Positions 3,374-62,642 of a stretch of DNA of 64,000 nucleotides are shown piece after piece; position 1 is the stretch's first letter, and the number at the start of each line of letters is the position of its first letter. The position numbers and the translations under genes are program-made. The DNA lies in the NCBI GenBank assembly GCA_020773975.1, contig GCA_020773975.1_3638.1; one strand, written 5' to 3'. Source of the stretch: a phage. Under the pieces are notes generated by a model that was not told the origin of the DNA, made no database searches, and saw only the letters and a list, made by a program, of their open reading frames with translations.

Positions 3374-4711
3374 ATGTTGCATGTTTTCAAAAAAGAAGAT
3401 TTTCAAAGAGAGTACGACATTTTGTGCTCTTTTATACCAAAAGGTGTTTATGATTTATTGTCGAAGCTGGATGTTAAGATAGCTGGCGGTGCAATAACCT
3501 CTTTGTTCTCTAATAGTAAAGTCAACGATCTTGATTTGTATTTCCCATCTTGGGAAAGCCTTGAGATATTCATTGCGTACATGATGGATAAAAATCTCTT
3601 AGGTGGAAAGTATGATTTAGCCGCACAGACAAACGGATGGGGAAATCAAAAAAGAACTTTTAGGTATTTTTATAACCTTGATAATGGGCAGGGTTCTCAT
3701 TTAGGTTTCACAGATCCTTTGTCAAGATGTAAAAATCTTCATTTTGAAGATGAAGATCTTCCAAACCTTACCAGAGTTGGTGTAACCGATAAGAGTGTGA
3801 TGCTGTACTTTGGGAAAGACCCTGTATTACAGTGTGTTGCTGTGGATGTGTTCAAAACAACAGAAGATATCTTTAGCAAAGTTGATTTTACAATCAACAT
3901 GGGCGCTTTTAACTTCAAGGATGGTGTGTGGGAATTTGATAGCAATTTCTTAAAACATATTGCTCAAAGGGTTTTAGTTGTAAATCATAAGACTGAATAC
4001 CCGATTATATCACTTTTGAGATCTGAAAAATATAAATCTCGTGGTTATACAATTTCGAAAAAAGAGACAATGAAACTGGCTATGACCATTGCTAGCCTTC
4101 AGATACAAAGTTGGGAATCGGCAAAGTCACATCTTAGCGGGATGTACGGAATGAAACTGTCTGATATCTTTGATGAGACAAAGCCGTTTTCACTTGATTT
4201 TTTGGTTGAGTGTCTAGACAGATTAGAATCTGGTTGCCAGCAGATAGACAAAAATGTTACCCCTGTGCAACCGTTGCCGTTTAATGATGTGTCCCAAGTT
4301 AATATGTTCAGTATTTTCCAAAGATTAAGAAAAGCAACAGGCAGGAAATACTTTACAAAACTATATGGGGTTTGTCCTGCTGAAGTTTTCTATCTTATGA
4401 TGCCAACAAAAGATACACATTATGTTGGGCTTCACAAAGAAGATATAGCAAATAATTTTCCAACTCTCAGACTTTATGTTGATGAAACGGAGGCAAGAGG
4501 AGAGTACAAAATTCTGTGTGAGAACGGAGAGATAGATGGCTATGGGTTTACAATATATCGGCCAGGTGCAGTTCTGTTAAAGGTTTCTGTAAGCGATACG
4601 TCAAAGATCCAATACGATATAGGTTATTTTAATGATTTGTGTATTTCTGAAAACAGAAAAACAACACTGAAAATTGAAAACATTATTGAGTGTGATGGGG
4701 ATATATCATGA
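3374..4711 (+). CDS. putative tRNA nucleotidyltransferase-like (CCA-adding/poly(A) polymerase family) protein
   Basis: ORF trimmed to ATG after AAGGA RBS; head motif KIAGGAITSLF...NDLDLYF aligns with GGAVRD...DxD, and SKVDFTINMGAF aligns with RRDxTINA at matching spacing. Confidence 0.5.
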   Translation: MLHVFKKEDFQREYDILCSFIPKGVYDLLSKLDVKIAGGAITSLFSNSKVNDLDLYFPSWESLEIFIAYMMDKNLLGGKYDLAAQTNGWGNQKRTFRYFYNLDNGQGSHLGFTDPLSRCKNLHFEDEDLPNLTRVGVTDKSVMLYFGKDPVLQCVAVDVFKTTEDIFSKVDFTINMGAFNFKDGVWEFDSNFLKHIAQRVLVVNHKTEYPIISLLRSEKYKSRGYTISKKETMKLAMTIASLQIQSWESAKSHLSGMYGMKLSDIFDETKPFSLDFLVECLDRLESGCQQIDKNVTPVQPLPFNDVSQVNMFSIFQRLRKATGRKYFTKLYGVCPAEVFYLMMPTKDTHYVGLHKEDIANNFPTLRLYVDETEARGEYKILCENGEIDGYGFTIYRPGAVLLKVSVSDTSKIQYDIGYFNDLCISENRKTTLKIENIIECDGDIS

Positions 4712-5109
4712 TATGGTTTAAAACGCTGTTAACTTTCTTTTCTAAGAACATAAAACAGATAGGTGTTGTTTTGTGTTGTGTGATGCTCGTTTGGGGTGTT
4801 GTGGAGATAAAGCATTGGTATAATGACCAGTTAACATCGTCATACAACGCAGGTGTCAGCGACACTGATCTTAAATGGGAGAGGATTAACCAGCAAGTTC
4901 GGGATCATAATAACGCTTTTAAAAAACAACAGCAGGATAAGATCGATGAGTTGTCAACCATGTTGGTGAAAGAGAGAGAAATTAATAACCAACTGAAAGA
5001 AGACCTTGATAAAAAGGTTAAAAGTTATAGCAAAACACAAGCAGGAAAACAGGTTTGCCTAGATAACCAGTTTGTTGATATTTATAACGATAGTCTGGGG
5101 GTGAAATGA
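4708..5109 (+). CDS. putative i-spanin (Rz-like)
   Basis: N-terminal TM helix followed by charged coiled-coil-like periplasmic domain; overlaps next gene start. Confidence 0.5.
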   Translation: MIWFKTLLTFFSKNIKQIGVVLCCVMLVWGVVEIKHWYNDQLTSSYNAGVSDTDLKWERINQQVRDHNNAFKKQQQDKIDELSTMLVKEREINNQLKEDLDKKVKSYSKTQAGKQVCLDNQFVDIYNDSLGVK

Positions 5110-5399
5110 AAAAGTGTGTCATCATGGTTCCTTTTCTATTATTGATGTTAATAGGGTGCACTTCACCACCTGAGAGAGTTGTTCCTGTTGCAAAAGAGAT
5201 CATAATAAGCGATATCTTAGCAAGACCACCCGCTGAGGCTATGATACCACCGAAAGAACCTGAAAAATTGCCAGGTGGTCTTAGTAATGCAGATGCTATC
5301 GAGGTGATTAAGAAAAACAACATTAAGGCTGCTGAAGATCGTATGAGATTAAGAACGTTACAGCAGTATGTGAAGACAATATTTTCTTCAGATAAGTAG
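5106..5399 (+). CDS. putative o-spanin (Rz1-like), proline-rich signal-peptide protein
   Basis: Signal peptide ending LIGC then Pro-rich mature region; immediately follows the i-spanin candidate. Confidence 0.45.
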   Translation: MKKCVIMVPFLLLMLIGCTSPPERVVPVAKEIIISDILARPPAEAMIPPKEPEKLPGGLSNADAIEVIKKNNIKAAEDRMRLRTLQQYVKTIFSSDK

Positions 5400-5407
5400 T
5401 TGACAAT

Positions 5408-5440
5408 GCCCTTATTTAATGATAAGGGCTTTATTTTTAT
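5408..5440 (+). terminator. rho-independent terminator
   Basis: GCCCTTAT...ATAAGGGC hairpin followed by T-run. Confidence 0.55.
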
Positions 5441-5494
5441 CGTTATTCGTGGTAAACTACCTTCTATGGTAGGAATAGAAAATATGGAGGTCTT

Positions 5495-7773: not shown

Positions 7774-7902
7774 TAAAAGAATAGTGGCTTCATGCAGTAA
7801 TGCATGTCGAATAACTTCGTTAATTGCTGGGAAACCCTTTGTATAAGGGCAATCAGCAGCTATAATTACTTTTCCGAAACTGTAGTAGGGAGAATGTTTG
7901 AG

Positions 7903-8589: not shown

Positions 8590-8673
8590 TGTAGTTCAAC
8601 GACTATCCCGCAAGGGAGTAGATCGCAAGCTAATGGCGTTCGAAAAGCGAAGCACCCATTATGTGTGGGTGGT

Positions 8674-8723
8674 GATATAGTCTACTCTGCATGGTGACAT
8701 GCAGCAGCACGTAGTGGTGCGGG
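8674..8723 (+). repeat. 50-nt intron core block, copy 2
   Basis: GATATAGTCTACTCTGCATGGTGACATGCAGCAGCACGTAGTGGTGCGGG; near-identical to 7381-7430. Confidence 0.7.
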
Positions 8724-8771
8724 GGTTGGCGTTGCGTCCAACCTTGAATACAAGGATTCGATAATCCTCCC

Positions 8772-9557: not shown

Positions 9558-9572
9558 CAGAGGGGATAATTC

Positions 9573-11114: not shown

Positions 11115-11182
11115 CACTCAACCTTCTGAAATAACTTGCAAAAGAAAAAGAACGATGTTAAAATAACTGTTATGGGGAAATA

Positions 11183-11824
11183 ATGAAATTTAAAAGCATT
11201 AAAGACCTTCCTTCATCAGTATCTGATCTGTCTCTTGTTCAAAAGAGCAAGATACTGAATATCGCTAATGGCCTGATTGCTTCAGGCCATTCTCCAGAAA
11301 TTTCTGTAGAAAAGGCTTCTGAGAGAGTTTTATCTCTAAATCTTAAAAAGAGTCTTAATAAAGAAACATCTGTAGTTAATATCCAAAAAGATGCGGAACA
11401 AATGATCTCTTATGAGGTTATTTATGAGCCAAACACCAAGGATGCCCATGGAGAGTGGATGTCTCCTGAAACGATAGTAAAGGCAAAAGAATCTTACGAT
11501 AAGGCACTCGCTGCTGGTTTGGTGAAAGAAAATTTATTCCATCTTAGCGAGACTGATGCATTCACTATTGAAAAAACTTGGATTCAAGAAGAACTGGATG
11601 TTGTGGTCATTGGGACGGAACAGATAATTAAAGCAGGAACATGGGTAGCCAAGGTTAAGTATAATGATCCTGATTTGTGGAATTTGAAAAAAGCAAATGT
11701 TGTTGGTGGTTTAAGCATCCAGTGCTCTGGGCGTGTGGACACAGCAACAGGAGAAATAACAGATGTTGATTTCGGTATCGAATGTCTGGGTTATCTAGAT
11801 GAAACAGAGGAAGAGGACGAATGA
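11183..11824 (+). CDS. putative head maturation protease or prohead core protein
   Basis: Position between portal and scaffold; acidic C-terminus; call by synteny only. Confidence 0.3.
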   Translation: MKFKSIKDLPSSVSDLSLVQKSKILNIANGLIASGHSPEISVEKASERVLSLNLKKSLNKETSVVNIQKDAEQMISYEVIYEPNTKDAHGEWMSPETIVKAKESYDKALAAGLVKENLFHLSETDAFTIEKTWIQEELDVVVIGTEQIIKAGTWVAKVKYNDPDLWNLKKANVVGGLSIQCSGRVDTATGEITDVDFGIECLGYLDETEEEDE

Positions 11825-12822
11825 CAATTGTAAAGGCCAAAGCCATTAAGGAGAAGGGTATTGCACTGTGTCATGAGCTTCAAGGGTATTCTGCTAATTT
11901 AAGACCAGTATCACTTCTTATGAAGTCTGATCTTAAACCTGAGCAGCTTACTAAAGACGTTATCAAAGCCCTCCAGCAAGTAACTGTTACAATGAGCTTT
12001 GAAGAATTTCTGCGTAGATTCTTCTACATGTGGCATGATGATGCAGAACTGCTGGCAAAACTTCTTGGTTTTGAAACTGAACTTGAATACGATGCGGCGC
12101 AAAACCCTGATGATGAATTTATTGTGGCGTGGAATGCACAACATCAAGAATTTCTTGAAGAACGCGTGCAAGCAATAACAATTGCTAAAGCTGCTCACGA
12201 AGGTAAAGAATTAGATCTCGCTAAACAATATGAGTTGCTAAAATTACAACAATTGTTTGAAAAAGGTGTTGCAGAATTAGGAGTCACTTTCGTAGAGGGT
12301 GATGATAAAGATCTCCAGGTGACTGGGGTCGTCAAAGAAGCAGGTTCAAAACCTGTAGTTGATAAATCCAAGAAAAAAGAGGAGACCTCAGTGTCTAATA
12401 ATGTTGATGTGACCAAATCTCAGGAATATCTGGATCTGGTTAAAAAATTAGAAGAAGCTGAAGCCAAAGCTGCTAAAGCTGATGAAATTATCAAAGCTGC
12501 CGTTGAAGTGGAAAAGAAAGAAGCTCTGAATAAAGCAAAAACTTTCACTTTCGCTGCTGACTCTGATCATGAAGCACTGGCTAACTTTATTATCGAGAAA
12601 GCTAATGCTCCTGTGGTGACTATTCTGGAAAAAGCACAAGCTCGTATTAAGGAGCTTGAAGAAGAAGTTAAGACTGTGAAAAAAGAATTTGCTACCGCTG
12701 AACATGGTTCCGGTGCTGAAGCTACTACAGACGACATTAATAAGTCTGCTGAAGATATTCTGAAAGCCAACGTAGAAAAAGCTCGCGCCCGTGCACGCGA
12801 AGCGGCTGCAATGAACGCGTAA
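11821..12822 (+). CDS. putative scaffolding protein
   Basis: Ala/Glu/Lys-rich predicted coiled coil (EEAEAKAAKADEIIKAA...), located just upstream of major capsid gene. Confidence 0.5.
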   Translation: MTIVKAKAIKEKGIALCHELQGYSANLRPVSLLMKSDLKPEQLTKDVIKALQQVTVTMSFEEFLRRFFYMWHDDAELLAKLLGFETELEYDAAQNPDDEFIVAWNAQHQEFLEERVQAITIAKAAHEGKELDLAKQYELLKLQQLFEKGVAELGVTFVEGDDKDLQVTGVVKEAGSKPVVDKSKKKEETSVSNNVDVTKSQEYLDLVKKLEEAEAKAAKADEIIKAAVEVEKKEALNKAKTFTFAADSDHEALANFIIEKANAPVVTILEKAQARIKELEEEVKTVKKEFATAEHGSGAEATTDDINKSAEDILKANVEKARARAREAAAMNA

Positions 12823-12840
12823 TTCGAGGAGATTAAATAA

Positions 12841-13263
12841 ATGGCTAATCCAATTCAAGGTTTCTACTCTGACATTGTACTGGGTAAAGTTGATTCTTCT
12901 GACCAAGGCTATAGCTTCAAGGAAATGGAGATTCAGTACGCAGCAGGTATGAAAGCAGGTATGATCGTTAAAGAAGATGGTACTCTAGCTGCATCTGGTG
13001 ATGCTGCGCAGGCTTATGGTGTTCTGGTTGACCATGACCTTGTACCTGCATACGAACCTGTTACCCCGTTCAAAGTAGGAACTAAATATAATTTTGTTGT
13101 TGCTGTTCGTGGCCTTACTCTGAATAAGTCCAAGATTGTGTTCTCTGATGGTTCTACTGGAATTGACGAGACTGCTATTAAAGCTCTTGAGGCAAGAGGT
13201 CTGAAAATCACCGATAAATATTACGATGGTTCTGAAGATATTAAAGTAACGGCTATCAGCTAA
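12841..13263 (+). CDS. putative capsid accessory or decoration protein (140 aa)
   Basis: Strong RBS, host-optimised codon usage similar to capsid gene, position between scaffold and capsid. Confidence 0.35.
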   Translation: MANPIQGFYSDIVLGKVDSSDQGYSFKEMEIQYAAGMKAGMIVKEDGTLAASGDAAQAYGVLVDHDLVPAYEPVTPFKVGTKYNFVVAVRGLTLNKSKIVFSDGSTGIDETAIKALEARGLKITDKYYDGSEDIKVTAIS

Positions 13264-13286
13264 TTTGCATCAAGGAGAATTTATAA

Positions 13287-14300
13287 ATGGCAGCAGTACA
13301 GACTAACGACTTTCAAATCGTAAACCTTGGCGCAGCACTGGAACTTGTTCCACGTCAGTATCGCCTGATTACCAACATGGATCTGTTCACCGCTTACCAT
13401 GGTGAAACCACAATTGCTCGTGTTGAGCGTGTTGACGAAATTGTTGCGGATATTCCTGCACGTCGTCGTGGTGGAGAACGTAACTATGTGGGTAGTGAAA
13501 AAGCCCAAATCAAGAACTTCAACATTCCGTTCTTCCCTCTGGATCGTCAGATCACTGCGGCAGATGTTCAGAACTTCCGTAAATACTTCACTACGGACGC
13601 TCCGAGAACTGTTGAAGACGTAGTTGCTCGCGTAGTTAAGCGTATTCGCGTTTCTCATGAACAACTGAAAGAAAAAGCAATGGTTCAGGCAATCATGGGT
13701 AAATCATGGTCTCCACAAGATCCGACCGCACAGTACAACTACTTTACTGAGTGGGGAGTTACCCAGCATACTGCCAATATCAACTTCACAGATGTTGCAG
13801 TTGACCCGTCTGACCTGATTGAGAAAGACGCTCGTGCATACATTATCGACAATGCAGGTGATAACGGCAATAACTACAATATCATTGTTCTGGCTTCTCG
13901 TAAATGGTTCTCTGCTCTGATCGCCCATCCGCTGATCATGAACGCTTACCAGTATTACTCTTCTACCCAAGAGCCGCTGCGTCGTCGTCTGGGTATGGGT
14001 TCTGAGAATGCCAACAACCGTATGTTTGTTCATAAGAACGTAACCTACATTGAAGACATCTCTGGATATATCCCAGATGGTGAGGCGTACATCCTGCCGC
14101 AAGGTATTGATGATATGTTCCAGATCCATTACGCTCCGGCAGACGATGTTCGTGAAGCGAACACTGTAGCTGAAGAACTGTACCTGTGGTACAAATCTTC
14201 TGCATATCTGCGTGAAGAGAAAGTTGAATCTGAGACTTCCTTCTTGACGGTTAACACCCGTCCTGAACTGGTTGTACGTTCTACAGGTACTTTCGCATAA
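13287..14300 (+). CDS. putative major capsid protein (337 aa)
   Basis: Strong RBS AAGGAGA, highly biased codon usage (CGT, CTG, GGT) typical of abundant virion proteins, followed by a strong terminator; synteny. Confidence 0.6.
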   Translation: MAAVQTNDFQIVNLGAALELVPRQYRLITNMDLFTAYHGETTIARVERVDEIVADIPARRRGGERNYVGSEKAQIKNFNIPFFPLDRQITAADVQNFRKYFTTDAPRTVEDVVARVVKRIRVSHEQLKEKAMVQAIMGKSWSPQDPTAQYNYFTEWGVTQHTANINFTDVAVDPSDLIEKDARAYIIDNAGDNGNNYNIIVLASRKWFSALIAHPLIMNAYQYYSSTQEPLRRRLGMGSENANNRMFVHKNVTYIEDISGYIPDGEAYILPQGIDDMFQIHYAPADDVREANTVAEELYLWYKSSAYLREEKVESETSFLTVNTRPELVVRSTGTFA

Positions 14301-14325
14301 GATAGCTTAAATGCTACCTCTAATG

Positions 14326-14355
14326 AGGGGAGGTGATAATTCACCTCCCCTTTTT
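14326..14355 (+). terminator. rho-independent terminator after capsid gene
   Basis: AGGGGAGGTGA-TAAT-TCACCTCCCC hairpin followed by TTTTT. Confidence 0.7.
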
Positions 14356-14431
14356 CACATTCTGACTTTAATAATAACCACTTATCCTGTATTGTAAAGT
14401 GGTTTTTACTAAGGAATAAAAAGGAGAATTT

Positions 14432-14938
14432 ATGGCGAATCAAAATTATCGTATTTTCCCTAACAAAGTTGAGCTGTTTAAATTTTTCGGAGCATATGCA
14501 CCACAATTGAATGCAGCAGTATCTGCAAGACTGCCTTTGAACGGTTTGTGTGTGGGGACACAACACAAGGCATTCCGAAATACGGTTGAATTTTTCACTG
14601 CTCTTGCTGAGATGTCTGGTCTGGATGTTGATGCGCAGCATTCTACCATTCGTATGGGTTCTTATATCGTATTCTTTAATAAAGATATTCCTAATCCAAA
14701 CAGTATGGGTAAGATAGTTGATGCTAAGATTGTTACAGCACAAGAGAAGAAAGATGGAGAGCCACTTTCAGTTGAAGAGATTTTGGCTGAAGCAGAGAAG
14801 TTGAATGACGAAACTGATAAGAAAGGTAGTAAGGATAAACTGGCTGAGTTTGCACTCTCTAAAGGTGTTACATTGGCTAAGAATAAATCTTTTGAGAAGA
14901 TGATTGCTGATTTAAAATCTGAATTAGAAGTATCCTAA
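14432..14938 (+). CDS. hypothetical virion protein (168 aa)
   Basis: ORF track; RBS AAGGAGA; no recognisable motif. Confidence 0.4.
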   Translation: MANQNYRIFPNKVELFKFFGAYAPQLNAAVSARLPLNGLCVGTQHKAFRNTVEFFTALAEMSGLDVDAQHSTIRMGSYIVFFNKDIPNPNSMGKIVDAKIVTAQEKKDGEPLSVEEILAEAEKLNDETDKKGSKDKLAEFALSKGVTLAKNKSFEKMIADLKSELEVS

Positions 14939-14956
14939 TTTTTAAGGAGTTAAGCC

Positions 14957-16234
14957 ATGACAGCAACTACAGGTGTTGGCGGGTTAATTTATGGTCGTGC
15001 ATTAGTTGACCAGAAAACAGGAAAGAAAATAAATTTTGATGAGTTGGGTGGTGGGAATATCCCAGAAGATATAACAGAACTTATTGCATCTAAAGCCCCA
15101 ATAGAAAGCCCTTCATTTACAGGGAAACCTCAAGCACCAACACCATCGGATGATGCGGTAGGGAAGGAAATAACTAATGTAGAGTATGTTAAAAATCTAA
15201 TTGCAAAACTAGTTAACTCAGCACCTGAGACATTGGACACTCTCAATGAGTTGGCAAAAGCATTAGGTGATGACCCCAATTTTGCGACAACGGTCACTAA
15301 TGAACTGGCAGGTAAACAGCCGCTGAACGACGTGCTGACGGCAATCAGTGAACTGAAGCAACGGGCAGATAATCTTCTGTGCTTTAATCAGGACGGGAAT
15401 GCTTCACTGTCCCCGCTGTCAGAAAAAGCCCGGTCACTGCTGGCACTGGACACGACAGAAGCCATGCGCACGGAGCTTGAACTGAAGGCTGCCGCGACAA
15501 TGGATGTTCAGAGCGATATCCGTGACCGCACAGAAGGGCGTCTGGCCCTGCCGGGAGCATATGGTTACGGGCGTCTGTTCGCGTACGATGAGCACCTTTA
15601 CGTGAACGACGAACCCCAGGGCAGGAACTGGATAAAGAGTGCCACGCCGGGACGGTATGCGCTTACTTTTCGCGATGTCTCCTGGCTGCTTCCCGGCGTG
15701 AAAACATTTTCCGGCATTATTGATGTACTCCAGTCACCATTCACCATCAGTGATGATGAGCGTGGTGCCAAAAACATGACACTGGTCTGTTATAACCAGC
15801 GTGGTGATGGTGAAAACAGCATTCATATAGTCAGCTACAGTGTTTCCGGTGATGAGCTGAGCTTCACATCGTCCACTGTTGTCTCAGACGGTCTTTCACT
15901 GGCCCGGTTGATGTCGGTGACGACAGGAGAGGGGCCGTCATCCTGGTACAGGTATCCGGATGTTGGCGCGCCAGTTCTGGCTGTGTATCAGGGAACAGCG
16001 GCCGGAGATAACTCAGTCAAAATAGGCCTGGGAGATACGGTGCCGGGGTCACGACTTGGTCCGGTGAGTATTACCTGTACATTCAGTCAGTCTGGCATAT
16101 CGGAGTCCACACCGTCTGTAAACACAGGAGGTGCAGGTGCATACAGTTTTCCGGGGCGTTATCAGGCGCTGTCCGGGTGGAAGCAGGGAGGGTCAGCCCG
16201 TGGCTGTATCTGCCTGTTCGTGCGCATTGAGTAA
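14957..16234 (+). CDS. tail fibre protein, mosaic (phage-like N-terminus, GC-rich C-terminal receptor-binding region)
   Basis: Conserved fibre motif SPSFTGKPQAPTPSDD...LAKALGDDPNFATT; composition switches to GC-rich at about 15300. Confidence 0.6.
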   Translation: MTATTGVGGLIYGRALVDQKTGKKINFDELGGGNIPEDITELIASKAPIESPSFTGKPQAPTPSDDAVGKEITNVEYVKNLIAKLVNSAPETLDTLNELAKALGDDPNFATTVTNELAGKQPLNDVLTAISELKQRADNLLCFNQDGNASLSPLSEKARSLLALDTTEAMRTELELKAAATMDVQSDIRDRTEGRLALPGAYGYGRLFAYDEHLYVNDEPQGRNWIKSATPGRYALTFRDVSWLLPGVKTFSGIIDVLQSPFTISDDERGAKNMTLVCYNQRGDGENSIHIVSYSVSGDELSFTSSTVVSDGLSLARLMSVTTGEGPSSWYRYPDVGAPVLAVYQGTAAGDNSVKIGLGDTVPGSRLGPVSITCTFSQSGISESTPSVNTGGAGAYSFPGRYQALSGWKQGGSARGCICLFVRIE

Positions 16235-35252: not shown

Positions 35253-35567
35253 ATGTCTATTGACCTATTTGCTATCTTAAAAGCCGTATGGGGCGTATTG
35301 ACGTTTTTCTTAGTTGGTGTTCTGAAGCTAACATACTCAGACTATAAAAAGACACAACAACGTCTTGATGAACTTGATAGGGACATCATAAGAATTAAGG
35401 CAGAAATGGTCACTAAAGAAAAACTTGATGAGATTCTTGATAAAAAACTGAAAGCTGTCCGCGATGATGTTTCAGATTTTAGAAAAGACTTAAAAGAGGA
35501 TGTAAGCAGTTTGAGAGTTGATCTTATAGACCGGCTTAAAATTCTTATAGAGAGCCAAATGAAATGA
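35253..35567 (+). CDS. small membrane protein, N-terminal TM plus coiled coil (104 aa)
   Basis: Hydrophobic N-terminus LFAILKAVWGVLTFFLVGVL followed by charged helical region. Confidence 0.4.
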   Translation: MSIDLFAILKAVWGVLTFFLVGVLKLTYSDYKKTQQRLDELDRDIIRIKAEMVTKEKLDEILDKKLKAVRDDVSDFRKDLKEDVSSLRVDLIDRLKILIESQMK

Positions 35568-36040
35568 TAAGTTCTGCACTGTACTTTATATGCTTTGCAG
35601 TGCTACTTCTTGATAATGATAAAGGTATCCGAACCATGTCAGTACTTGGCATGGTTCATATCCTGATAGAGAATATATTGTACTGGTGGTTCAGTTCCCA
35701 TATCTACGCATTTGATTTATCACTCTACCTAACTTTTTGTTGGTTTTTGGATATATCTCTGATTTTCTTTACTGCATGTGTTTTGACAGGATGGAGAAAA
35801 AAGCTAATGCTTGCACTATCTCTACCTGTTTTGTTTTGCCAAATTTTAATTATGCAGTTCCCATTTATTTTACCGAACGCATTAGGCTTCACGATAAATT
35901 CATCATATCCAACATTTATGGAAGTTCTTTTATTATGCGCTGCATACAAAACAGGTACAATAAAAGAATTGTTTAAAACTTCTGTTGTTGTTGTTGGTTT
36001 CATAATTATAGCCAGAATTGTTCCTGGAGTAAATTATTGA
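35564..36040 (+). CDS. polytopic membrane protein (158 aa)
   Basis: At least four hydrophobic helices; overlapping start with upstream gene. Confidence 0.4.
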   Translation: MISSALYFICFAVLLLDNDKGIRTMSVLGMVHILIENILYWWFSSHIYAFDLSLYLTFCWFLDISLIFFTACVLTGWRKKLMLALSLPVLFCQILIMQFPFILPNALGFTINSSYPTFMEVLLLCAAYKTGTIKELFKTSVVVVGFIIIARIVPGVNY

Positions 36041-40550: not shown

Positions 40551-40742
40551 TCAAGATGATTTTTTGTCTTTTTCTTGGAGAAAAGACAGGACAAATGCTG
40601 TAACCGCTATAATCAAAGGGGGCATGACAACAATTGCCCATGGTAGGTATAGAGGGGCAAGAACTAACCACCAAGACCAGTCTATAATCTCACACAACTT
40701 CAACGCTATGAAGAGAATGCTTAACGCAGATAAAAATCTCAT
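40551..40742 (-). CDS. small membrane protein (63 aa)
   Basis: ORF track; two hydrophobic helices. Confidence 0.3.
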   Translation of the reverse strand: MRFLSALSILFIALKLCEIIDWSWWLVLAPLYLPWAIVVMPPLIIAVTAFVLSFLQEKDKKSS

Positions 40743-40749: not shown

Positions 40750-41031
40750 TCAAGAGAAAAACTCTTCTATAACTTCCCAAACCCTTTCCGAACCCCCTCC
40801 TGAAAGGATACTCCAAATAACCATATCTTGATAGCCTTTCTTACACACATCCACTTGTCGAAATGCTTTGTGGAAACCCTCTGGACAACCATATTCCACA
40901 GGGAGCATATCCACATTATCTTCGAAATATTTAAGTAGCAATTCCTCTTCCAAAGAGGGGTTGTTGCGAAGTTTCTCTTTGAGATTCTCAACAAGTTGTG
41001 CACCTGTTAACTTTTTGTTTGTCATGTCCAA
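40750..41031 (-). CDS. hypothetical protein (93 aa)
   Basis: ORF track. Confidence 0.3.
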   Translation of the reverse strand: MDMTNKKLTGAQLVENLKEKLRNNPSLEEELLLKYFEDNVDMLPVEYGCPEGFHKAFRQVDVCKKGYQDMVIWSILSGGGSERVWEVIEEFFS

Positions 41032-41378
41032 TCTCCATTTTTAATTTCCAGTATATCTACGCTCTCTGTTGGTACAAAGCCAACAACAGGCTTCATACAT
41101 TTCTCTTTTACATTATCGAAGACATACATTTCATCCAATGCTTTTTGTGTTGTGCACGATTCCCAGTTTTTTGTGTACTCTTTGTAGCCATCCTCGTAAA
41201 GGAGGAAGTAGTTAATAGTTGTTGCCCCAAGAATAACGAACATAACAAAAGAGACAACAACGTGTTTCCATGTTCCTTTATACGATAAAATGAAAGCCCA
41301 AATAGAACACAACACATAAAACGATAAAGCAGGGAACCAGTTATTATGCACCTGTACCCACTCTAAAAAAGACATCAT
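41022..41378 (-). CDS. membrane protein (118 aa)
   Basis: ORF track; hydrophobic helices. Confidence 0.3.
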   Translation of the reverse strand: MMSFLEWVQVHNNWFPALSFYVLCSIWAFILSYKGTWKHVVVSFVMFVILGATTINYFLLYEDGYKEYTKNWESCTTQKALDEMYVFDNVKEKCMKPVVGFVPTESVDILEIKNGDWT

Positions 41379-42432: not shown

Positions 42433-43068
42433 TTAAAATCTTCCACACACCCACCCTTCACAGTTGTGATCACGACATCCTTCAAAATCATATGGGCTGT
42501 ACTGCCAGGTTATTTTTCCGCAGTGCGGACAATTCCAGCGCACTTTCCCGCTTCGTGACCTCTTCCTTCTGTTCTGCTTTTTCAACCAATCAGGCATGAC
42601 CAAACCTGCGCCCTGAACCATTGTTCTGCGGTTAAAGTTATTGATATTGAACGTCCGGCGCTTTGCTGCATCAGCAATGGAAAATGGCAACCAAACTATT
42701 CCTGGTTCGTTTTTGTTGGCGACGCTAAAGATGGTCGCTTTACTGAAGTCATCTGTTGGCAATCCACCGTGTTGAAGCCAGTAAACATCGTTGCCGTTCC
42801 AGCTACCTTTTTTGTAGGCCACATACGCAGTGCAATCTGACTCAATCAGGCTTTCTGTAGGGATGTACTGGCAATCAACGTGCCACACAGCCATTGCATC
42901 CACACTATCAGCGCAAACAGGTTGATCGATATCTCGACCACAATTCCAGGCTTTTTGGGCTTCTTCCAGCGTGTAAACATGAGCGCGATCGATATCATAA
43001 CTGTAACCATTGCCGTTATGGCAATGGAATGAGGCGTTATTACCCACAGTTTCACGCAAGCACATCAT
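42433..43068 (-). CDS. hypothetical protein with C-terminal CxxC zinc ribbon (GC-rich island)
   Basis: ORF track 42433..43119 trimmed to internal Met; C-terminal WNCPHCGKITW...CEGWVCGRF; enterobacterial-like composition. Confidence 0.35.
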   Translation of the reverse strand: MMCLRETVGNNASFHCHNGNGYSYDIDRAHVYTLEEAQKAWNCGRDIDQPVCADSVDAMAVWHVDCQYIPTESLIESDCTAYVAYKKGSWNGNDVYWLQHGGLPTDDFSKATIFSVANKNEPGIVWLPFSIADAAKRRTFNINNFNRRTMVQGAGLVMPDWLKKQNRRKRSRSGKVRWNCPHCGKITWQYSPYDFEGCRDHNCEGWVCGRF

Positions 43069-45050: not shown

Positions 45051-45311
45051 CTATTTCACCTTAATCTCAACATTTCTCACATCTAGCTCTACGGGGAGTT
45101 CTGACTTTCCGGTCAGTGCTAATGCAAGATTTTCTGGGGTAACAAGGACAGTTATTGTTTTTCCTCTCTCCAGACGAATAGCCATTCTTATCTTGTCATC
45201 ATCACCTGTGTTAGGTCGAGTAATTGATATTTGTCCGTTCATATATTTATCCTTTGTTATTAATATGCCAATCCTTAACAAATAGTTATGTGAATGAAAG
45301 AAAGCAACCAA
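45051..45311 (-). CDS. hypothetical small protein
   Basis: ORF track; true start may be the internal Met (MNGQISITRP). Confidence 0.3.
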   Translation of the reverse strand: MVAFFHSHNYLLRIGILITKDKYMNGQISITRPNTGDDDKIRMAIRLERGKTITVLVTPENLALALTGKSELPVELDVRNVEIKVK

Positions 45312-45642
45312 AGAATTGACTCAATAGCTGCCCAACCAATAACTGCACAAACAACACCAAGAAACAAGAAAAAACCAGTACTGGGCAAATTATTGAACAT
45401 CCTCACTCCCTTTTTTGTTATTAACACGCTGTTGGAGGTCTTTTAGATGGTCAATATTAGAGCGAACATGCTTAAGTAGCTGCTCTTTTGTAAAGGTTTT
45501 CATGATTCCCCCTCATTGAACAGAATATCTCGTAATACAGGGACGCTTTTATCCATACTTGCTTTAAATTGTTTACTGTTCGCACTTGCCCATGTATACA
45601 CAACCATTTTAGCAGCGTCGCTCAAAGTTTCATACTTATTTC

Positions 45643-56212: not shown

Positions 56213-57517
56213 CTACTTACCAGGGAAAGTCTCTTCATAAAACTTAACAAGACGTTGATCAACGATAATATCTTTATCCCTGATCCTACGTAATAACCTT
56301 AATCCTTTTGCACTTGTTGCTCTGCTAAAAGCCACGTATGCCATGCCTGGTGCAAAAGTCCCATTGCCAAAGTCAACATTAACTTCCGGTAATGTTAATC
56401 CTTGTGCTTTGTGTATTGTAACAGCCCACCCAAGACGAATCGGCAAAGCCCTGTACTCACCAATGATAATCTTCTCAATTTCTTCAGTTATTGTACCATC
56501 TGGGTTTTTCACCTTTATGGGGTTATACTCAACATTTTCCCACACATAAGGTTCTACGTCAACAATATCACCATTCTCAAGGCGGACTTTAACACTGTAT
56601 TTACGTAGTTCAACAATCTCCCCACGGGAACCATTCACATAACTTGGTTCATCCAGACCTCTGGGGTCATTGACAGTAATCATCACCTGCGCCCCCTCTT
56701 TCAGATATAACTCTTCAGGTACAGGTGTCTGGTTAAATTGCCCTGTCTTTTTTGCCTTGTAAACTGTTGGGATTCCAGGTATTGCATCAAAACGTTTTTT
56801 GTTTATTTTGTCTGCTGCCGCGTTTGTTGAGGTTATTGTTATAGCATCCAAGGGTTTTCCCATGTTGTAGCAATAAGTATTCATAAACTCAACAATCTCT
56901 GGAATACGCTCTCCCTTGCGAAGGCAATTAAGAAGTGTTGAAAAATGAACACTACTTTGCCTGTATATTTTATCAAGAAATACAGGATATGGGTTCAATT
57001 CTTTCCATGTTTTAGAAAAGCAACAAAGTTCTGTGTCGTGGAACTGGTAGTAGATCTCTTTTTCTTCACCTTTCAAAACAGGTGGATTCTGTAAGAAATC
57101 CCCGAACATGCACACCTGCAAACCACCGAAAGGCTCTTTAGGTTTTTTACGTGCCAGACGACATTTCATGTCCATTTCCCAAAGTTTGTCTGCCCTGAAC
57201 ATACTTATCTCTTCAATAATAAGAATCTTCAGTGCTTTACTTTTAAGCAACTTCTTAGCCTTTGCCTTTATCTCTTCTGCATCTTTTTTAGTGGACACGC
57301 CTAATGAAAGTCCGAAAGCTCTGTGTGCCGTCATACCATCCACATTAATGGCAGCAGCCCCTGTAGGGGCCACTGTCAAGACTGAACCTGCGTATAAGGA
57401 TTGGATAGTTTTTATGGTATGGCTCTTTCCAGCACCTGCATAACCACTGATAAACACATTTTCACCGGACATTATAGCGCCAAGAGCTTCTTCAACGCCA
57501 ACCCCGTATTGAGACAT
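56213..57517 (-). CDS. SF1B DNA helicase (Dda/RecD-like)
   Basis: Walker A GYAGAGKSH, GDFLQNPPV, C-terminal AVTIHKAQGLT and YVAFSRA motifs. Confidence 0.65.
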   Translation of the reverse strand: MSQYGVGVEEALGAIMSGENVFISGYAGAGKSHTIKTIQSLYAGSVLTVAPTGAAAINVDGMTAHRAFGLSLGVSTKKDAEEIKAKAKKLLKSKALKILIIEEISMFRADKLWEMDMKCRLARKKPKEPFGGLQVCMFGDFLQNPPVLKGEEKEIYYQFHDTELCCFSKTWKELNPYPVFLDKIYRQSSVHFSTLLNCLRKGERIPEIVEFMNTYCYNMGKPLDAITITSTNAAADKINKKRFDAIPGIPTVYKAKKTGQFNQTPVPEELYLKEGAQVMITVNDPRGLDEPSYVNGSRGEIVELRKYSVKVRLENGDIVDVEPYVWENVEYNPIKVKNPDGTITEEIEKIIIGEYRALPIRLGWAVTIHKAQGLTLPEVNVDFGNGTFAPGMAYVAFSRATSAKGLRLLRRIRDKDIIVDQRLVKFYEETFPGK

Positions 57518-58530
57518 CAGTCCTCCTTAGATTCTTGTAGATAAATCTCTTCAAGAATTTTACCCTGTACACCAATGACAATAATATCTGGTGCACCTGC
57601 TGGTTTTGGTGTTCCTGTCAGAACTTCATAACGACAGCAACGGCATTTTTTCTGGTTATAGTCATAAGGGACACTGACAATATCTGCCGGATCCACAGAT
57701 ACTTCTACAAGTGCCCTTGAAGTCTTCTCAAAGGTAGCGGCATAGTCAATAGATGCAACATGCAAACCTTGGCTACATGTTCTATTGGGATTATCCTCAA
57801 CCATATTACGTGGCATGGAAATCACTTGCCCTTTATAATTAGGAACTTTACCTGTATGACAATCTCGTGGGCCATCTACAGTTATCTTAATTTTCTTGTA
57901 TGCCTTAATATTTCCGTTTTCAAGGATCTCAAGATCATTATGTTTTACAAAATCATAAAGCATTTTAACAGAAGCATACGACGGGTTGTGTAGCAACTTC
58001 TGCATGAATTTGACATATCGTTCGTCAAAGCAATCATTCTCAATATCTTTAATGATTCGTTTAGCAATACTGCTTTCCTGTTTTTGACCGTGCCAATATA
58101 AAACGTTATCTATCAATACTAAATTATCACCAAAATCAATGGTCTTTTTCTTTTCTGCTTCTTTCTCTTCCAAAATACGTTGTACAGCAGCATCTATTCC
58201 TCCTGTCCAAAGGATAACACCAACTTCTTTGAAGATGGGGCTGCTACTATTTAGAGTATATTGTTCACCATTTAACAAAGTGATATGGATATTGTCTTGG
58301 GTAACAAGGACAATTGGTTGTGCAAGAGTATGCACTGGCTTCATAATACCTACAGGATCTTCCTTAGCCTTTTTGGTTGTCGGCATTCCTTTTTTGGGTG
58401 CAACTGTCCAGCGTTTAAGAACATTTAGACCACGATCAACAACCACCATATTATTTTTCTTAGCGTATTCACGAGCTTCACGACGTGACATGAATAAAGG
58501 ATTACTCACCTTTTTCTCCTTTGCTGTCAA
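57517..58530 (-). CDS. putative rIIB-like protein
   Basis: Assigned by adjacency to and co-orientation with the rIIA-like gene, and size (337 aa); no independent motif. Confidence 0.35.
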   Translation of the reverse strand: MTAKEKKVSNPLFMSRREAREYAKKNNMVVVDRGLNVLKRWTVAPKKGMPTTKKAKEDPVGIMKPVHTLAQPIVLVTQDNIHITLLNGEQYTLNSSSPIFKEVGVILWTGGIDAAVQRILEEKEAEKKKTIDFGDNLVLIDNVLYWHGQKQESSIAKRIIKDIENDCFDERYVKFMQKLLHNPSYASVKMLYDFVKHNDLEILENGNIKAYKKIKITVDGPRDCHTGKVPNYKGQVISMPRNMVEDNPNRTCSQGLHVASIDYAATFEKTSRALVEVSVDPADIVSVPYDYNQKKCRCCRYEVLTGTPKPAGAPDIIVIGVQGKILEEIYLQESKED

Positions 58531-60514
58531 TAAATTTACGATACTCTAGCATCTCTGGAGTATTGAAATGCCTAATATTAATGTATTTTAACAATGGGTA
58601 ACGATCTTTCTTAATCTGTAGTAGCTTTTTCCCAATTCTCTTCTTGGCCTCTATCATCCTTAATGCTTTCTCACGACTATCTTCGTAGCCAGGAACTGAC
58701 CAATAACTGGGTATGTTTACCTTCATCTCCCATTTTGGGAAACTAGCTACCATCACACCAAAATAGCTAAGCTCTTTAACAATGTTATGATACTCATGAT
58801 CTTTCCCCACTTCTTGATATAAATGATATTCAAGAAGGTTAGTTTTTGCAAGAGCATGAATATCCTCCTCAGTTATAACCCGTGCCTCATCTGGCAGCCA
58901 ACTTGATCTGTTTAAAGGCACAATATATAACTTACCAGCTACACCAAGATTCTTAAGAAATGTTGGTGGTTGCTTTCTCCAAGATGTTCTAAGATTTGTT
59001 CTAAGATTGGAAACGTATCCTAACGGGCATAATCCTTTCACCTGCCCACCCCAGTAGACCATAGCCGCCTCAATATCTTCAAACTGAGCACGGGAAATGC
59101 GGGTTACATCTACGGAGCCATCTTGGTTGATTATCCAAACTTTATGACCCGGTTCGTAATAACCATAGCCACCATACTTTTTATCTGCTTTTTGCACTGG
59201 TCGTTTTTCAAGTTCAGATAACTTGAAAATCATCCCTTCAAAGAATTTATCACTGTATAAGGACAGAGCGTAATCAGCATCGGTTATAAATGATCTCTTA
59301 CCAAACTTCTCTGCGAGCCAGTTACATTTAGAGCGCACATACTTGTGATCATCATTGTAAACCAGTGGATGACCATTCATCAACTCTGCGTATGAATATC
59401 TCTCATCCTTACCACGGCGTGATCCTTCGCCACCATATGTTTCACAGTAATCTATGTAAGAACCATCAGTATAATTCTTGAACTTATTTGCAATAAAAGC
59501 AGCACCGTACTTTGTAGCGAAGTACCCGCCAATAAACTTCATATGATCAAGAACTGCTTTTAACGTTGGCAGATCGCTTAATTCTTTTGTGATTTCTTCT
59601 CCGCGAAGTCGGATAGCTTTCGTCACAAAACTTTCAAGTTTATCACGAAATCCCCCGTCATTCTTTCCTTCTACTGTCCACTCCCTGCCAGGATCTACAT
59701 TACAATCCCCAATAGGGATAGATACCGTCATCATAGGCAGTTCTTTGCGAGTAGAGAGATAATCAGAGAGATATGGTTGTTGCCCCATGATGACAACACT
59801 ATCAGCGTTTCTTGAAATGCTACTATACATCTCAAGAACCCAGCCAGTCTCCTCATCCTCATACCGATACTGAACAGGATAAGTGCGATCTTCAATCTGA
59901 GTTTTAACAAAAGGATCGTTAATAATATATGGGAATTTGGCATAACGAAGGCATTTTACAATAGCCTGTCGATAAGCTCCTGTTTCCCAAGTGTTTACGT
60001 TAAATTTAACCTCTACACCATTCTCCTCTGTTGTTTCACAACAGAATAAAGGTACAACCTCTGGTATTCCGCTGTTTTTGTGAACAGAGTATGTTGTTTT
60101 CACTCCATCTTTAACAGAAACAACTGTGAACATATCTGTTACTGCAAGAGGCGCTTTTGACCCAATACCTTTCGCGCCAATCAGATCATTACTGTTTCTT
60201 TTTGTGGACTTACCAATCATCATGAATGTACGTGTTACCATCTCATGATCCATACCTAACCCTGTATCCTTAACAGAATACCAAGGTTCCAAGTCTGTTG
60301 GTGAGTGGATGATGATGGGTTTATCAGAACACCCTGCCTCTGTATGAGCATCTACAGCGTTGAAGAGAGGCTCTCGTACTGCTGCCAAAGGTTTATCTTT
60401 ATAAATTCCATCGATAAGAATACTGAAAGTCTCAGGATTCATTGCAATTGATGCTTGGTATCTTTCTACGTTCCCAGTTACCTGAACTTTGTTGTCAGAT
60501 CTTTGAATAATCAT
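58502..60514 (-). CDS. rIIA-like protein with N-terminal GHKL-type ATPase motifs
   Basis: N box LFNAVDAHTEAG, G1 box VKDTGLGM, G2 GAKGIGSKAPLAV; 670 aa. Confidence 0.55.
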   Translation of the reverse strand: MIIQRSDNKVQVTGNVERYQASIAMNPETFSILIDGIYKDKPLAAVREPLFNAVDAHTEAGCSDKPIIIHSPTDLEPWYSVKDTGLGMDHEMVTRTFMMIGKSTKRNSNDLIGAKGIGSKAPLAVTDMFTVVSVKDGVKTTYSVHKNSGIPEVVPLFCCETTEENGVEVKFNVNTWETGAYRQAIVKCLRYAKFPYIINDPFVKTQIEDRTYPVQYRYEDEETGWVLEMYSSISRNADSVVIMGQQPYLSDYLSTRKELPMMTVSIPIGDCNVDPGREWTVEGKNDGGFRDKLESFVTKAIRLRGEEITKELSDLPTLKAVLDHMKFIGGYFATKYGAAFIANKFKNYTDGSYIDYCETYGGEGSRRGKDERYSYAELMNGHPLVYNDDHKYVRSKCNWLAEKFGKRSFITDADYALSLYSDKFFEGMIFKLSELEKRPVQKADKKYGGYGYYEPGHKVWIINQDGSVDVTRISRAQFEDIEAAMVYWGGQVKGLCPLGYVSNLRTNLRTSWRKQPPTFLKNLGVAGKLYIVPLNRSSWLPDEARVITEEDIHALAKTNLLEYHLYQEVGKDHEYHNIVKELSYFGVMVASFPKWEMKVNIPSYWSVPGYEDSREKALRMIEAKKRIGKKLLQIKKDRYPLLKYINIRHFNTPEMLEYRKFIDSKGEKGE

Positions 60515-60534
60515 TCAATACCTCTATGAACTAA

Positions 60535-61080
60535 TTATGCGTCAGGATGCTTGTAAAAAATATGATTCCCAACCTTCACTGTTTTCACCATGACTTTTGC
60601 CCAAGATGGCCTAACAGTAGTTGCATGATAGTACGTTGCTGATTTTGTGTAGTCAAGAGCCTTGTATAAACTTTTGTGGTCTTTATGCAATCTCATCAAG
60701 ATTTTAGCATAAAATTTAGCTCTTAACCACCTATCCTTTTCATAGACTTTAAAGGATTGCCCACCGAATGTCCAAGAGAATTGCCCCGGCTGGTAAACTA
60801 CTTTCTTGATAGTATGCGGGAAATTCTTGTCATCTTTTCTATTCAATGTGACAAAAGCGACACCCATCATTCCATAATCACCTTCTCCTCTTCCCTCTTT
60901 ATACAAGTTACAGGCAAGAATATTAAGCTCTGTATCATTCTTCTTGCAAATGTGAAGAACTTGGGGCTTCTTTGCACTTTCTTTGGCTAGAACAGGGGTA
61001 ATAGACAGAGAAAGTGCACAGCAAACTGCAAATAATAAAGATCTTATTTTCAAAACTAACTCCAGACAAATAAGCCCCAT
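60535..61080 (-). CDS. cell-wall hydrolase (SleB/CwlJ-like) with N-terminal signal-anchor; candidate endolysin
   Basis: ORF track 60535..61155 trimmed to internal Met (MGLICLELVL...); catalytic region ILACNLYKEGRGEGDYGMMGVAFVTLNR...VVYQPGQFSW. Confidence 0.55.
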   Translation of the reverse strand: MGLICLELVLKIRSLLFAVCCALSLSITPVLAKESAKKPQVLHICKKNDTELNILACNLYKEGRGEGDYGMMGVAFVTLNRKDDKNFPHTIKKVVYQPGQFSWTFGGQSFKVYEKDRWLRAKFYAKILMRLHKDHKSLYKALDYTKSATYYHATTVRPSWAKVMVKTVKVGNHIFYKHPDA

Positions 61081-61094
61081 AAAGGGGCTTTCTG

Positions 61095-61436
61095 TTAACG
61101 ATGGGTAATATCTCCAGATACTGTGTTTACACTTCCATGGATTGTATTTGCGCAAACATCGCCAGACACCGAAGACACATTGCCTAAGATATCTTTTTCA
61201 ACATTAATATCCCCAGATGTTGAGATCACACCATTAGAGACATTTCCATAGACATTGATACCACCTGATGTTGTACGTACCTCTTTAGCATCACCTTTGA
61301 TAATAACTGTGATGTTTTTATCGTTTGTGGTATGAACTAAATCACCATTGATATAGACATTATCACCCTTAGTGGTGATAGAGATACTACCATTGGTATA
61401 GTTTCCAGAAATTGTATTACCATTAATCGTAATCAT
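61095..61436 (-). CDS. beta-helix repeat protein (bactofilin-like repeats)
   Basis: ORF track 61095..61547 trimmed to internal Met (MITINGNTISGN); tandem degenerate G-x-[IV]-x-[VI]-x-G repeats. Confidence 0.35.
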   Translation of the reverse strand: MITINGNTISGNYTNGSISITTKGDNVYINGDLVHTTNDKNITVIIKGDAKEVRTTSGGINVYGNVSNGVISTSGDINVEKDILGNVSSVSGDVCANTIHGSVNTVSGDITHR

Positions 61437-61611
61437 TGTTTTGTTTCTCTTTAACAATAGGTGCTTTCTGAACAGAGTATACAAATGTTTTATTGTCTTC
61501 AATAAACTTTCTGCCCTGTTCTTCATCTTCAAAAATAATTGTGTCACACTTTGCCTTTAACATACCACGTTCTACAGTTGTGTGTGTCGTAGAAACAATT
61601 AAAGCCATCAA
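61423..61611 (-). CDS. hypothetical small protein (62 aa)
   Basis: ORF track. Confidence 0.3.
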   Translation of the reverse strand: MMALIVSTTHTTVERGMLKAKCDTIIFEDEEQGRKFIEDNKTFVYSVQKAPIVKEKQNNDYD

Positions 61612-62642
61612 GACACCTCGTTAAGTTGTTCCATGTACCAACTACGGGCTTTATTTGTTGTAAATTTTGCCACGTCTTTCATAGAAAGAGAATTGGCTTC
61701 TAACACATCTGCTTCTTCTTTGTTGATATCGCGGTTAACCCATGCGATAAATGCCCCCAGAGATGCGATGTCCAATCCAATTTCTTGCAACCCTTGTCGT
61801 AAACGGTTCTCAGTAACTGCATACTCCACAAAATCTTTGATAGATTGCAGTTTCACAGGATCAACAGCAGCCAGGGTTTTCACTTTAGAAACAGAATGTT
61901 TTTGCCCTTTCACTTTAAACCAAAGTGCAGAAACATGTGCCAAGTGGCGATCTTTAGGTGTCCATACCACACCCTCACCAACACCAGATACGCCAAAATA
62001 TTTACCTACTGGACACTCTTTTTCCACACCTTCGGTAATCTGTGCAATTTCTGATTGCACTGTCTCTGGCATGTTAAAAGGAATATCCAGTTCCCACTTA
62101 CCAAAAGTTAAAATATTATAAATACGTTGTTCTGGTAATCCAATGCCAAGAATATCGTTTAAAGCTAACCATTTCCGATGGTCATTCTCTTTTCCTACTG
62201 CCACACGGAAAATAGTAAAGAAAGGCATGATTTCAGATACCGCAACACCTTTCTGGATACCTTTCCCTGCAAATTCCCCAGCGATTTCTACTGGGAACTT
62301 AAATTCAATACCACGATCTTCGCAGATCTGTTTGACTTGCTCCAACAGGCCTTTAGGGTCTTTTTCAACCATAAAGGCCATAAACCCATAATTATCTTCT
62401 TCCAGAGACAAAACGCGTTCTTTGGACTGGTATACAACCTCATTTTCAGAATTAAAGACTACACGGCAATTAGTCCCGTGAATTTTAACTGTTCCTACAT
62501 AAGGAATGAGATATTGGTCTGGAGAGGCAACCTTACGCTTTATATTGCCATTCTCATCACGACCATCATAAGTCAGACGGTCATTAACCGCTCGGATAAC
62601 ATTGCGAAATTGACTAGTGCTTGGGTACTTAGTTGCTTGCAT
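61608..62642 (-). CDS. ATP-dependent RNA ligase (Rnl2-like)
   Basis: Nucleotidyltransferase motif I KIHGTN, motif III AGEFAGKGIQK, motif IV EGVVWTP, motif V WFKVKGQKH; about 344 aa. Confidence 0.6.
   Translation of the reverse strand: MQATKYPSTSQFRNVIRAVNDRLTYDGRDENGNIKRKVASPDQYLIPYVGTVKIHGTNCRVVFNSENEVVYQSKERVLSLEEDNYGFMAFMVEKDPKGLLEQVKQICEDRGIEFKFPVEIAGEFAGKGIQKGVAVSEIMPFFTIFRVAVGKENDHRKWLALNDILGIGLPEQRIYNILTFGKWELDIPFNMPETVQSEIAQITEGVEKECPVGKYFGVSGVGEGVVWTPKDRHLAHVSALWFKVKGQKHSVSKVKTLAAVDPVKLQSIKDFVEYAVTENRLRQGLQEIGLDIASLGAFIAWVNRDINKEEADVLEANSLSMKDVAKFTTNKARSWYMEQLNEVS

Follow-up and report, generated by a model that had tools for sequence, protein, structure and literature searches.

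Endolysins that are exported by the Sec pathway with a cleavable signal peptide, such as Lys44 of the Oenococcus phage fOg44, are the sole endolysins of Gram-positive phages, and the signal-anchor-release (SAR) endolysins of Gram-negative phages, such as P1 Lyz and R of phage 21, are small muralytic enzymes exported by means of a hydrophobic segment at the N-terminus. In this study I describe the gene of a SleB-type cell-wall hydrolase in a stretch of phage DNA of 64,000 nucleotides (contig GCA_020773975.1_3638.1 of GenBank assembly GCA_020773975.1; the whole stretch is called the window below), which an earlier note, made from the sequence alone, had taken for a SAR endolysin next to a bactofilin-like repeat protein. 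Hydrolase_2, the domain concerned, is among the common catalytic domains of Gram-negative phage lysins, and T5-like phages are reported to have an M15 peptidase gene adjoining the holin gene together with a distant SleB-domain gene. For the Vequintavirinae, both the signal peptide and the family-wide conservation of the SleB-like enzyme have already been described, as have dispersed lysis genes in CB7, rV5 and PVP-SE1; for the enzyme of CB7, CB7_83, the same paper predicts a signal peptide and contains an unpublished remark of toxicity upon expression in Escherichia coli (PMC7344957).

The region around the hydrolase and repeat genes of the window shares 96% identity over 2.7 kb with the Escherichia phages Av-05, 18-1-2, 19-1-2, 24-2-1 and vB_EcoM_TH18 (TH18 below), all of them Vequintavirinae, and the entire window is collinear, in reverse orientation, with positions 72903 to 7284 of TH18, a complete relative of 134 kb. 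The hydrolase gene belongs to an established phage group, in which it has been annotated before. Its product, of the Avunavirus type, is orthologous to the 'SleB-like cell wall hydrolase' present in all Vequintavirinae (Av05_00150 of Av-05, gp243 of PVP-SE1, SleB of rV5, CB7_83 and CR3_087), proteins that likewise combine a Hydrolase_2 domain with a signal peptide, and it is 96-97% identical to the Av-05 and TH18 proteins and 59% identical to gp243. With these orthologues it shares the position after the genes of RnlB and the repeat protein, and with the rV5-like phages that before rIIA; a homologue is present in 1358 phage records. The reading I favour, with a probability of about 0.7, is that the gene encodes a secreted, auxiliary Hydrolase_2 enzyme, that the main endolysin is a GH19 enzyme, and that the repeat protein is an unrelated neighbour. 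The discovery value is small, as papers and public annotation already cover the gene, its signal peptide, its conservation and the scattering of the lysis genes. For annotation it means that the hydrolase should be named neither 'the endolysin' nor a SAR endolysin, that several public records have the wrong start codon, and that the Av-05 reference is apparently chimeric. Two modest leads are the conserved succession of hairpin, Shine-Dalgarno sequence and TTG, and the fact that in several major phage groups a secreted Hydrolase_2 enzyme exists beside a canonical endolysin.

In the list of open reading frames (ORFs), the hydrolase is contained in a frame of 206 residues (60535-61155, minus strand). 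It matches the Pfam model Hydrolase_2 (PF07486) over its full length (model positions 1-100, E = 4e-21, 76 bits against a cutoff of 27) and PHROG 938, 'endolysin' (E = 1.2e-26), and a phmmer search finds the catalytic-domain chains of SleB, 4F55 and 4FET (E = 4.6e-9), with YKEGRGE aligned to YGESRGE. These two structures are also the only Foldseek hits at E <= 0.001 for the AlphaFold model of the protein (pLDDT 84), with a probability of 1.00 and TM-scores of 0.75-0.80 to the target. The motif quoted by the earlier note, NLYKEGRGEGDYG...VTLNR...PGQFSW, is found in the protein and contains the invariant columns of the family alignment (L55, A56, N58, Y60, E62, R64, G65 and E66 in 13 sequences). 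Conserved in the catalytic domain are the Glu of YKEGRGE (codon 60895-60897), whose catalytic role I presume from SleB, and two Cys (HICKK and LACN), which flank the catalytic region in the arrangement HxCK...LACN and are universal in the compared homologues. By domain, modelled fold and catalytic motif, the protein is a muralytic enzyme of the Hydrolase_2 family, with a predicted activity. The earlier claim of a SleB-type cell-wall hydrolase is confirmed by these matches, and that of an N-terminal hydrophobic domain by a modelled helix at residues 3-25. The protein is not an orthologue of SleB, because its score against the NCBI equivalog spore_SleB (TIGR02869) is far below the cutoff (53 versus 236.5 bits) and the C-terminal domain alone is matched (model positions 82-201). 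With the Bacillus SleB it shares the fold of the catalytic domain and the Y-x-E-x-R-G-E motif, but the identity is about 28% and SleB's N-terminal PG_binding_1 domain is lacking; the substrate requirement would differ too, as the host has no muramic-delta-lactam cortex. In the Klebsiella phages KNP2 and BIS47 (L025 and L028, about 5340-6510), the hydrolase ORF is contiguous only from LACNMYRE on and an HNH endonuclease is annotated there; the gene seems broken just ahead of the catalytic motif, possibly by an intron with a homing endonuclease.

Besides its SleB-like gp243, PVP-SE1 encodes gp146, annotated as lysozyme and adjoining phoH, which I take to be the experimentally characterised endolysin of this phage. 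The 'endolysin' of TH18, peg172, adjoins phoH as well and is 81% identical to gp146; it consists of a GH19 domain with a weak PG_binding_1 match and has relatives among the GH19 phage endolysins of solved structure. By collinearity, its gene lies about 36 kb past the left end of the window. Phi92-like phages, too, have a canonical endolysin together with a Hydrolase_2 gene. Because collinear TH18 has this separate GH19 endolysin, the SleB-like protein is most likely a second, periplasmic muralytic enzyme beside the main endolysin, and the implicit claim of the earlier note that it is the endolysin itself is not supported. Like Lys44, the hydrolase would be a muralytic enzyme that reaches the wall via Sec with no holin; unlike Lys44, it belongs to a lineage with a separate, cytoplasmic GH19 endolysin.

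The Av-05 record (NC_025830.1), whose order is rearranged with respect to the window, contains at about 99.6-114.1 kb (L005:3800-9000) some 4.9 kb that are 100% identical to the T4-like phage phiC120, with genes for a T4-type e lysozyme, denV, a nudix protein and an internal head protein. Compared with positions 1-15000 of the window, and with TH18, its capsid and terminase block runs the other way round, and it is without the segment of about 27 kb that carries the gp146-type endolysin. The record looks chimeric and rearranged, and because of this it is unsuitable for inferring lysis genes. The T4-type lysozyme Av05_00178 was considered as the endolysin of this phage and ruled out: its segment is the one identical to phiC120, and it is absent from the arrangement of the window and TH18.

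The coding sequence (CDS) of the hydrolase most likely starts with the TTG at 61053 and not with the ATG at 61080, the start in the Av-05 annotation, which sits inside the loop of a terminator-like hairpin. On the minus strand the stop codon of the repeat gene is followed by the hairpin, ATTTGT, the strong Shine-Dalgarno sequence GGAG, six bases and then TTG AAA ATA AGA, and RNA folding gives the hairpin as the dominant local structure. Homologues of other lineages start with MK[IL]K precisely at the position of the TTG, and TH18 is annotated with the same TTG-initiated CDS of 519 nt; in the records of Av-05 and PVP-SE1, the CDS is begun too far upstream, at an ATG or TTG that lies within the hairpin or ahead of it. 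I compared the start region in 11 lineages (rV5-like slur12, 4MG, PVP-SE1, seven metagenomic viral contigs and the window), and in 11 of 11 a GC-rich hairpin with a U-tract is followed by a Shine-Dalgarno sequence, GGAG or AGGAG, and then by a non-ATG start codon, which is GTG in slur12 and TTG in the other 10. The stem sequences of the hairpin vary between lineages (PVP-SE1, 4MG, slur12 and L024-L032). In TH18, TTG starts are rare (5 of 71 annotated CDS in the first 50 kb); the Hydrolase_2 gene of phi92-like Schickermooser is also TTG-started. As hairpin, Shine-Dalgarno sequence and non-ATG start recur with differing stems, and as TTG is rare, selection may have kept the expression of a toxic product low, and the conservation of these elements across lineages suggests a limitation of dose, which is a modest new point.

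Read from the TTG, the N-terminus consists of MKIR as a positive n-region, SLLFAVCCALSLSI as the h-region and TPVLA as a c-region with Pro and Thr, after which KESAKK follows. By the rules applied here (a positive n-region, an h-region of 7-15 residues, and small residues at -3 and -1), this is a Sec signal peptide for signal peptidase I. The small-x-small motif at positions 20-23 is present in 10 of 10 lineages, as VLA, VVA, AMA, ALA, VHA or AQA, with Pro or Thr ahead of it and a charged, Lys-rich stretch after it. The h-region comprises 12-14 residues in several lineages, the hydrophobic core being only 12 residues long in L031 and L032, and no Gly occurs in the hydrophobic segment. In the AlphaFold model, the helix is followed by a Lys-rich, disordered linker of low confidence before the fold begins. 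The Hydrolase_2 homologues of T5-like (Stitch, L101) and phi92-like (Schickermooser, L103) phages have textbook, cleavable-looking signal peptides. From the rules and the conserved motif, it seems quite probable that the N-terminus is a cleaved Sec signal peptide and not a SAR domain.

The earlier note had proposed the opposite, namely that the segment tethers an inactive enzyme to the inner membrane until collapse of the proton-motive force, caused by a pinholin, releases and activates it as the lysis enzyme. An N-terminal hydrophobic export segment is indeed shared with P1 Lyz and R of phage 21, about half of the residues in the helix are Ser, Ala, Cys or Thr, toxicity on expression is on record for CB7_83, and the homologue of Pakpunavirus PAK_P2 (L102), with a strong hairpin ahead of its gene, has an N-terminal transmembrane segment that looks uncleaved. 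However, the hallmark of SAR endolysins, a weak, Gly/Ala-rich transmembrane domain (TMD) without a signal-peptidase site, is not what is found at the N-terminus of the hydrolase, with its conserved cleavage motif and upstream Pro/Thr, its short h-region, its lack of Gly and its disordered linker. A Cys in the segment, together with the two Cys near the catalytic Glu, is reminiscent of P1 Lyz, but the segment Cys is missing from the rV5-like, L031, L032, P0007 and P0008 homologues, which rules out a disulfide caging like that of P1 Lyz; the universal pair in the domain would fit a periplasmic disulfide. Similarly, Certrevirus and Seunavirus have a gene for a small protein with two TMDs downstream of the hydrolase gene, whereas in the window no small membrane protein flanks it, rIIA starting 20 nt on, and a homologue of the 4MG protein was found neither in the window nor in TH18. 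As the lineage also has its GH19 endolysin, and as the hydrolase differs from P1 Lyz and phage 21 R in lacking both a conserved regulatory Cys and a neighbouring pinholin, a SAR endolysin appears improbable.

Alternatively, the enzyme may have no part in lysis. As a low-level product of an early or middle replication-gene cluster it could remodel or loosen the peptidoglycan during infection, for example in cell enlargement, a division block or muropeptide turnover, or it could interfere with superinfecting phages. The gene lies among those of RNA ligase, rIIA and rIIB, helicase and polymerase, on the strand of the replication module, but position does not define timing in these phages, where the gp146 endolysin is also found among metabolism genes. 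The features that dampen expression are conserved, the canonical endolysin is encoded elsewhere, and secreted Hydrolase_2 genes occur alongside canonical endolysins in three unrelated phage groups. However, toxicity upon expression is equally compatible with a lytic role. I regard this explanation as rather unlikely, and attach a similarly small chance to the general form of the idea, that large virulent phages of Gram-negative hosts use the Hydrolase_2 enzyme, which rV5-like, phi92-like and T5-like phages all have in addition to a canonical endolysin, not for lysis, but as a dose-limited periplasmic factor before it. If true, the enzyme would serve sacculus remodelling or the exclusion of competitors, and the conserved terminator and non-ATG start would constitute a built-in throttle.

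If the hydrolase is a secreted auxiliary enzyme beside a GH19 endolysin, as I prefer to read it, hairpin and weak start codon would keep its amount low, the enzyme being toxic. Sec would export the precursor, and signal peptidase I would cleave it behind Ala23 (between VLA and KE), freeing a soluble periplasmic enzyme of about 149 residues whose two conserved Cys are probably disulfide-bonded. From the periplasm it may attack the sacculus in an auxiliary, wall-degrading or wall-loosening function, while the bulk endolysin would be the cytoplasmic GH19 enzyme of the gp146 type, encoded elsewhere in the genome and released by a holin, and the spanins encoded next to the terminase would complete the disruption of the envelope. 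Several points speak against this account. The score of the hairpin is modest (z = -1.9), the region shows no enrichment of terminator-like sites, and the conservation of TTG is partly due to shared ancestry, which inflates the count of lineages. Cleavage is deduced from rules and conservation, the hydrophobic stretch from S5 to A23 has the length needed to cross a membrane, and in some lineages a Cys occurs there. It is TH18 that shows the gp146-type endolysin, in a part that the window does not cover. In the literature, a functional study of a phage Hydrolase_2 enzyme from a Gram-negative host was not found, and for the phage members the sole functional report is the unpublished remark on CB7_83.

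The repeat protein, of 113 residues, starts with the ATG at 61436 within a frame of 150 residues (61095-61547, minus strand) and matches PHROG 3163 with E = 5e-28. AlphaFold models it as an all-beta solenoid (pLDDT 81), in line with the beta-helical repeat protein announced by the earlier note; the repeats are degenerate, with peaks of self-similarity at lags of 7, 11, 16-17 and 33 (z 2.2-3.4), and a signal peptide is absent. The proposed resemblance to bactofilins appears to be that of beta-solenoids in general: the bactofilin model PF04519 does not match the protein at E <= 1 and matches 3 of 79 family members (best E = 3.3e-4), Toastrack/DUF4097 (PF13349) matches 8 of 79 (best E = 2.7e-6) but not the protein of the window, and a Foldseek search of the model against the PDB gives nothing below E = 0.1. 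With bactofilin, Toastrack, FapA and the C-terminal domain of CAP it shares a length of about 110 residues and a repeat period of about 16-18, and its predicted shape, a triangular, right-handed beta-helix, would be similar; it differs from them in the Pfam hits, which are weak, confined to 3-8 of the 79 members and absent for the protein of the window, and in having neither flanking tails nor a membrane-targeting sequence. The family to which the protein belongs is a large one among phages, and its members are taken to be small, right-handed beta-helices.

A functional pair, in which the repeat protein acts as a bactofilin-like scaffold, a chaperone or an inhibitor of the hydrolase, would be a conceivable explanation for the adjacency of the two genes. 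I surveyed 80 viral contigs carrying the repeat gene for neighbours within 5 kb, and the hydrolase is among them in 12 of 80 loci, which are the closest relatives only; rV5-like phages have the hydrolase with a different upstream gene. Since the hydrolase is near in so few loci, since a hairpin intervenes and since the two proteins belong to different cell compartments, such a pair is extremely improbable, and the survey rules it out as an explanation: the adjacency is synteny of the lineage. In other contexts the repeat gene is found with helicase and methyltransferase genes, with NAD-salvage genes, or between rnlB and rIIA as in KVP40. In phage-like contigs of 130-360 kb, which resemble jumbo phages, the solenoid gene (4001-4378 in L010, L012 and L013; 4001-4372 in L011) either overlaps an R2K ATP-grasp gene at the latter's end and has a DNA ligase gene after it, or overlaps a Thg1-like gene. 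These cases and KVP40 hinted at a link with ligase and RNA-repair genes, which was not upheld over the 80 loci; clustering of the neighbours gave no family common to all loci of the repeat gene, and none in more than about 15 of 81.

The spanin genes, which the earlier note had placed at 4708-5399 and about 55 kb from the hydrolase, are recovered by PHROG 4297 and 1267, and form a two-component system of separated architecture, with a TMD in the i-spanin, a lipobox in the o-spanin and adjacent genes. A classic cassette of clustered holin, endolysin and spanin genes is not present in the window, where the spanin genes lie at 4.7 kb and the SleB-like gene at 60.5 kb. In TH18, about 40 kb separate the spanins from the GH19 endolysin gene, which lies on their other side. 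The lysis functions are therefore more dispersed than had been claimed, with the spanins by the terminase, the SleB-like gene by rIIA and rIIB, and the GH19 gene elsewhere in TH18. Seven membrane ORFs of the window were compared with the PHROG families, and none matched one of holins. As holin candidates, only conserved membrane proteins are visible, at 35253-35567 and 35564-36040 on the plus strand and at 40551-40742, 41022-41378, 42846-43055 and 45275-45427 on the minus strand. Among the membrane proteins of the window are one of 104 residues with a single N-terminal TMD and a coiled coil, whose gene overlaps that of a multi-TMD protein of 158 residues just past the tail-fibre assembly genes, and there are also several small proteins with two TMDs. 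The 'hydrolase' Av05_0065, situated between two membrane proteins, was considered as part of a hidden lysis cassette, but by reading alone its sequence does not look muralytic. The coordinates of all features are given in Table 1.

Table 1. Features of the hydrolase locus, its neighbours and the spanin genes (positions in the window)
Feature	Coordinates	Strand	Basis and remarks
SleB/Hydrolase_2-type cell-wall hydrolase precursor, 172 aa (predicted)	60535..61053	-	TTG start 61053-61051, stop 60537-60535; Pfam PF07486
Catalytic domain, SleB lytic-transglycosylase fold (predicted)	60541..60957	-	match to 4F55/4FET; invariant columns
Predicted cleavable Sec signal peptide MKIRSLLFAVCCALSLSITPVLA, cut before KES	60985..61053	-	n-, h- and c-regions read from the sequence; AXA conservation
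Shine-Dalgarno sequence GGAG, 6 nt ahead of the TTG start	61060..61063	-	read from the sequence
Terminator-like hairpin AAGCCCC-TTTAT-GGGGCTT, then ATTTGT	61072..61090	-	terminator scan and RNA fold; between repeat and hydrolase genes
Beta-solenoid repeat protein, 113 aa, cytoplasmic (predicted)	61095..61436	-	match to PHROG 3163 (function unknown)
Conserved small protein, 62 aa	61423..61611	-	PHROG 9816 (function unknown); between RNA ligase and repeat genes; in 11 related loci
RNA ligase 2, RnlB-type, upstream neighbour	61608..62642	-	Pfam RNA_ligase, E = 2.3e-9; annotated RNA ligase 2 in Av-05, TH18 and PVP-SE1
rIIA homologue, begins 20 nt past the hydrolase stop	58502..60514	-	Av-05 annotation; HATPase_c_3
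rIIB homologue	57517..58530	-	Av-05 annotation
i-spanin, Rz-like, N-terminal TMD (residues 14-32)	4708..5109	+	PHROG 4297, E = 1.8e-47
o-spanin, Rz1-like lipoprotein, lipobox LIGC	5106..5399	+	PHROG 1267, E = 1.2e-21; overlaps the i-spanin stop by 4 nt; adjoins the large terminase gene

On the downstream side of the hydrolase gene, the arrangement varies between relatives. In rV5-like slur12, rIIA overlaps the hydrolase stop by 4 nt (L020:3486-3489), and in the window a gap of 20 nt is left (60515-60534). In PVP-SE1, 4MG and CB7, which are of the Seunavirus/Certrevirus type, a small ORF follows the hydrolase gene instead of rIIA, with two TMDs in 4MG and CB7, and CB7 is without rIIA and rIIB. 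Next to the spanin genes, the first ORF of the large terminase (5495-6841, plus strand) has no Pfam match and reads IIGGAAG-C LSKDHEVLT...VVVTGN-SGKSYLL, which looks like an intein in the Walker A loop (between GGAAG and SGKS). The annotation of TH18 splits the terminase into three parts and places an HNH homing endonuclease between two of these.

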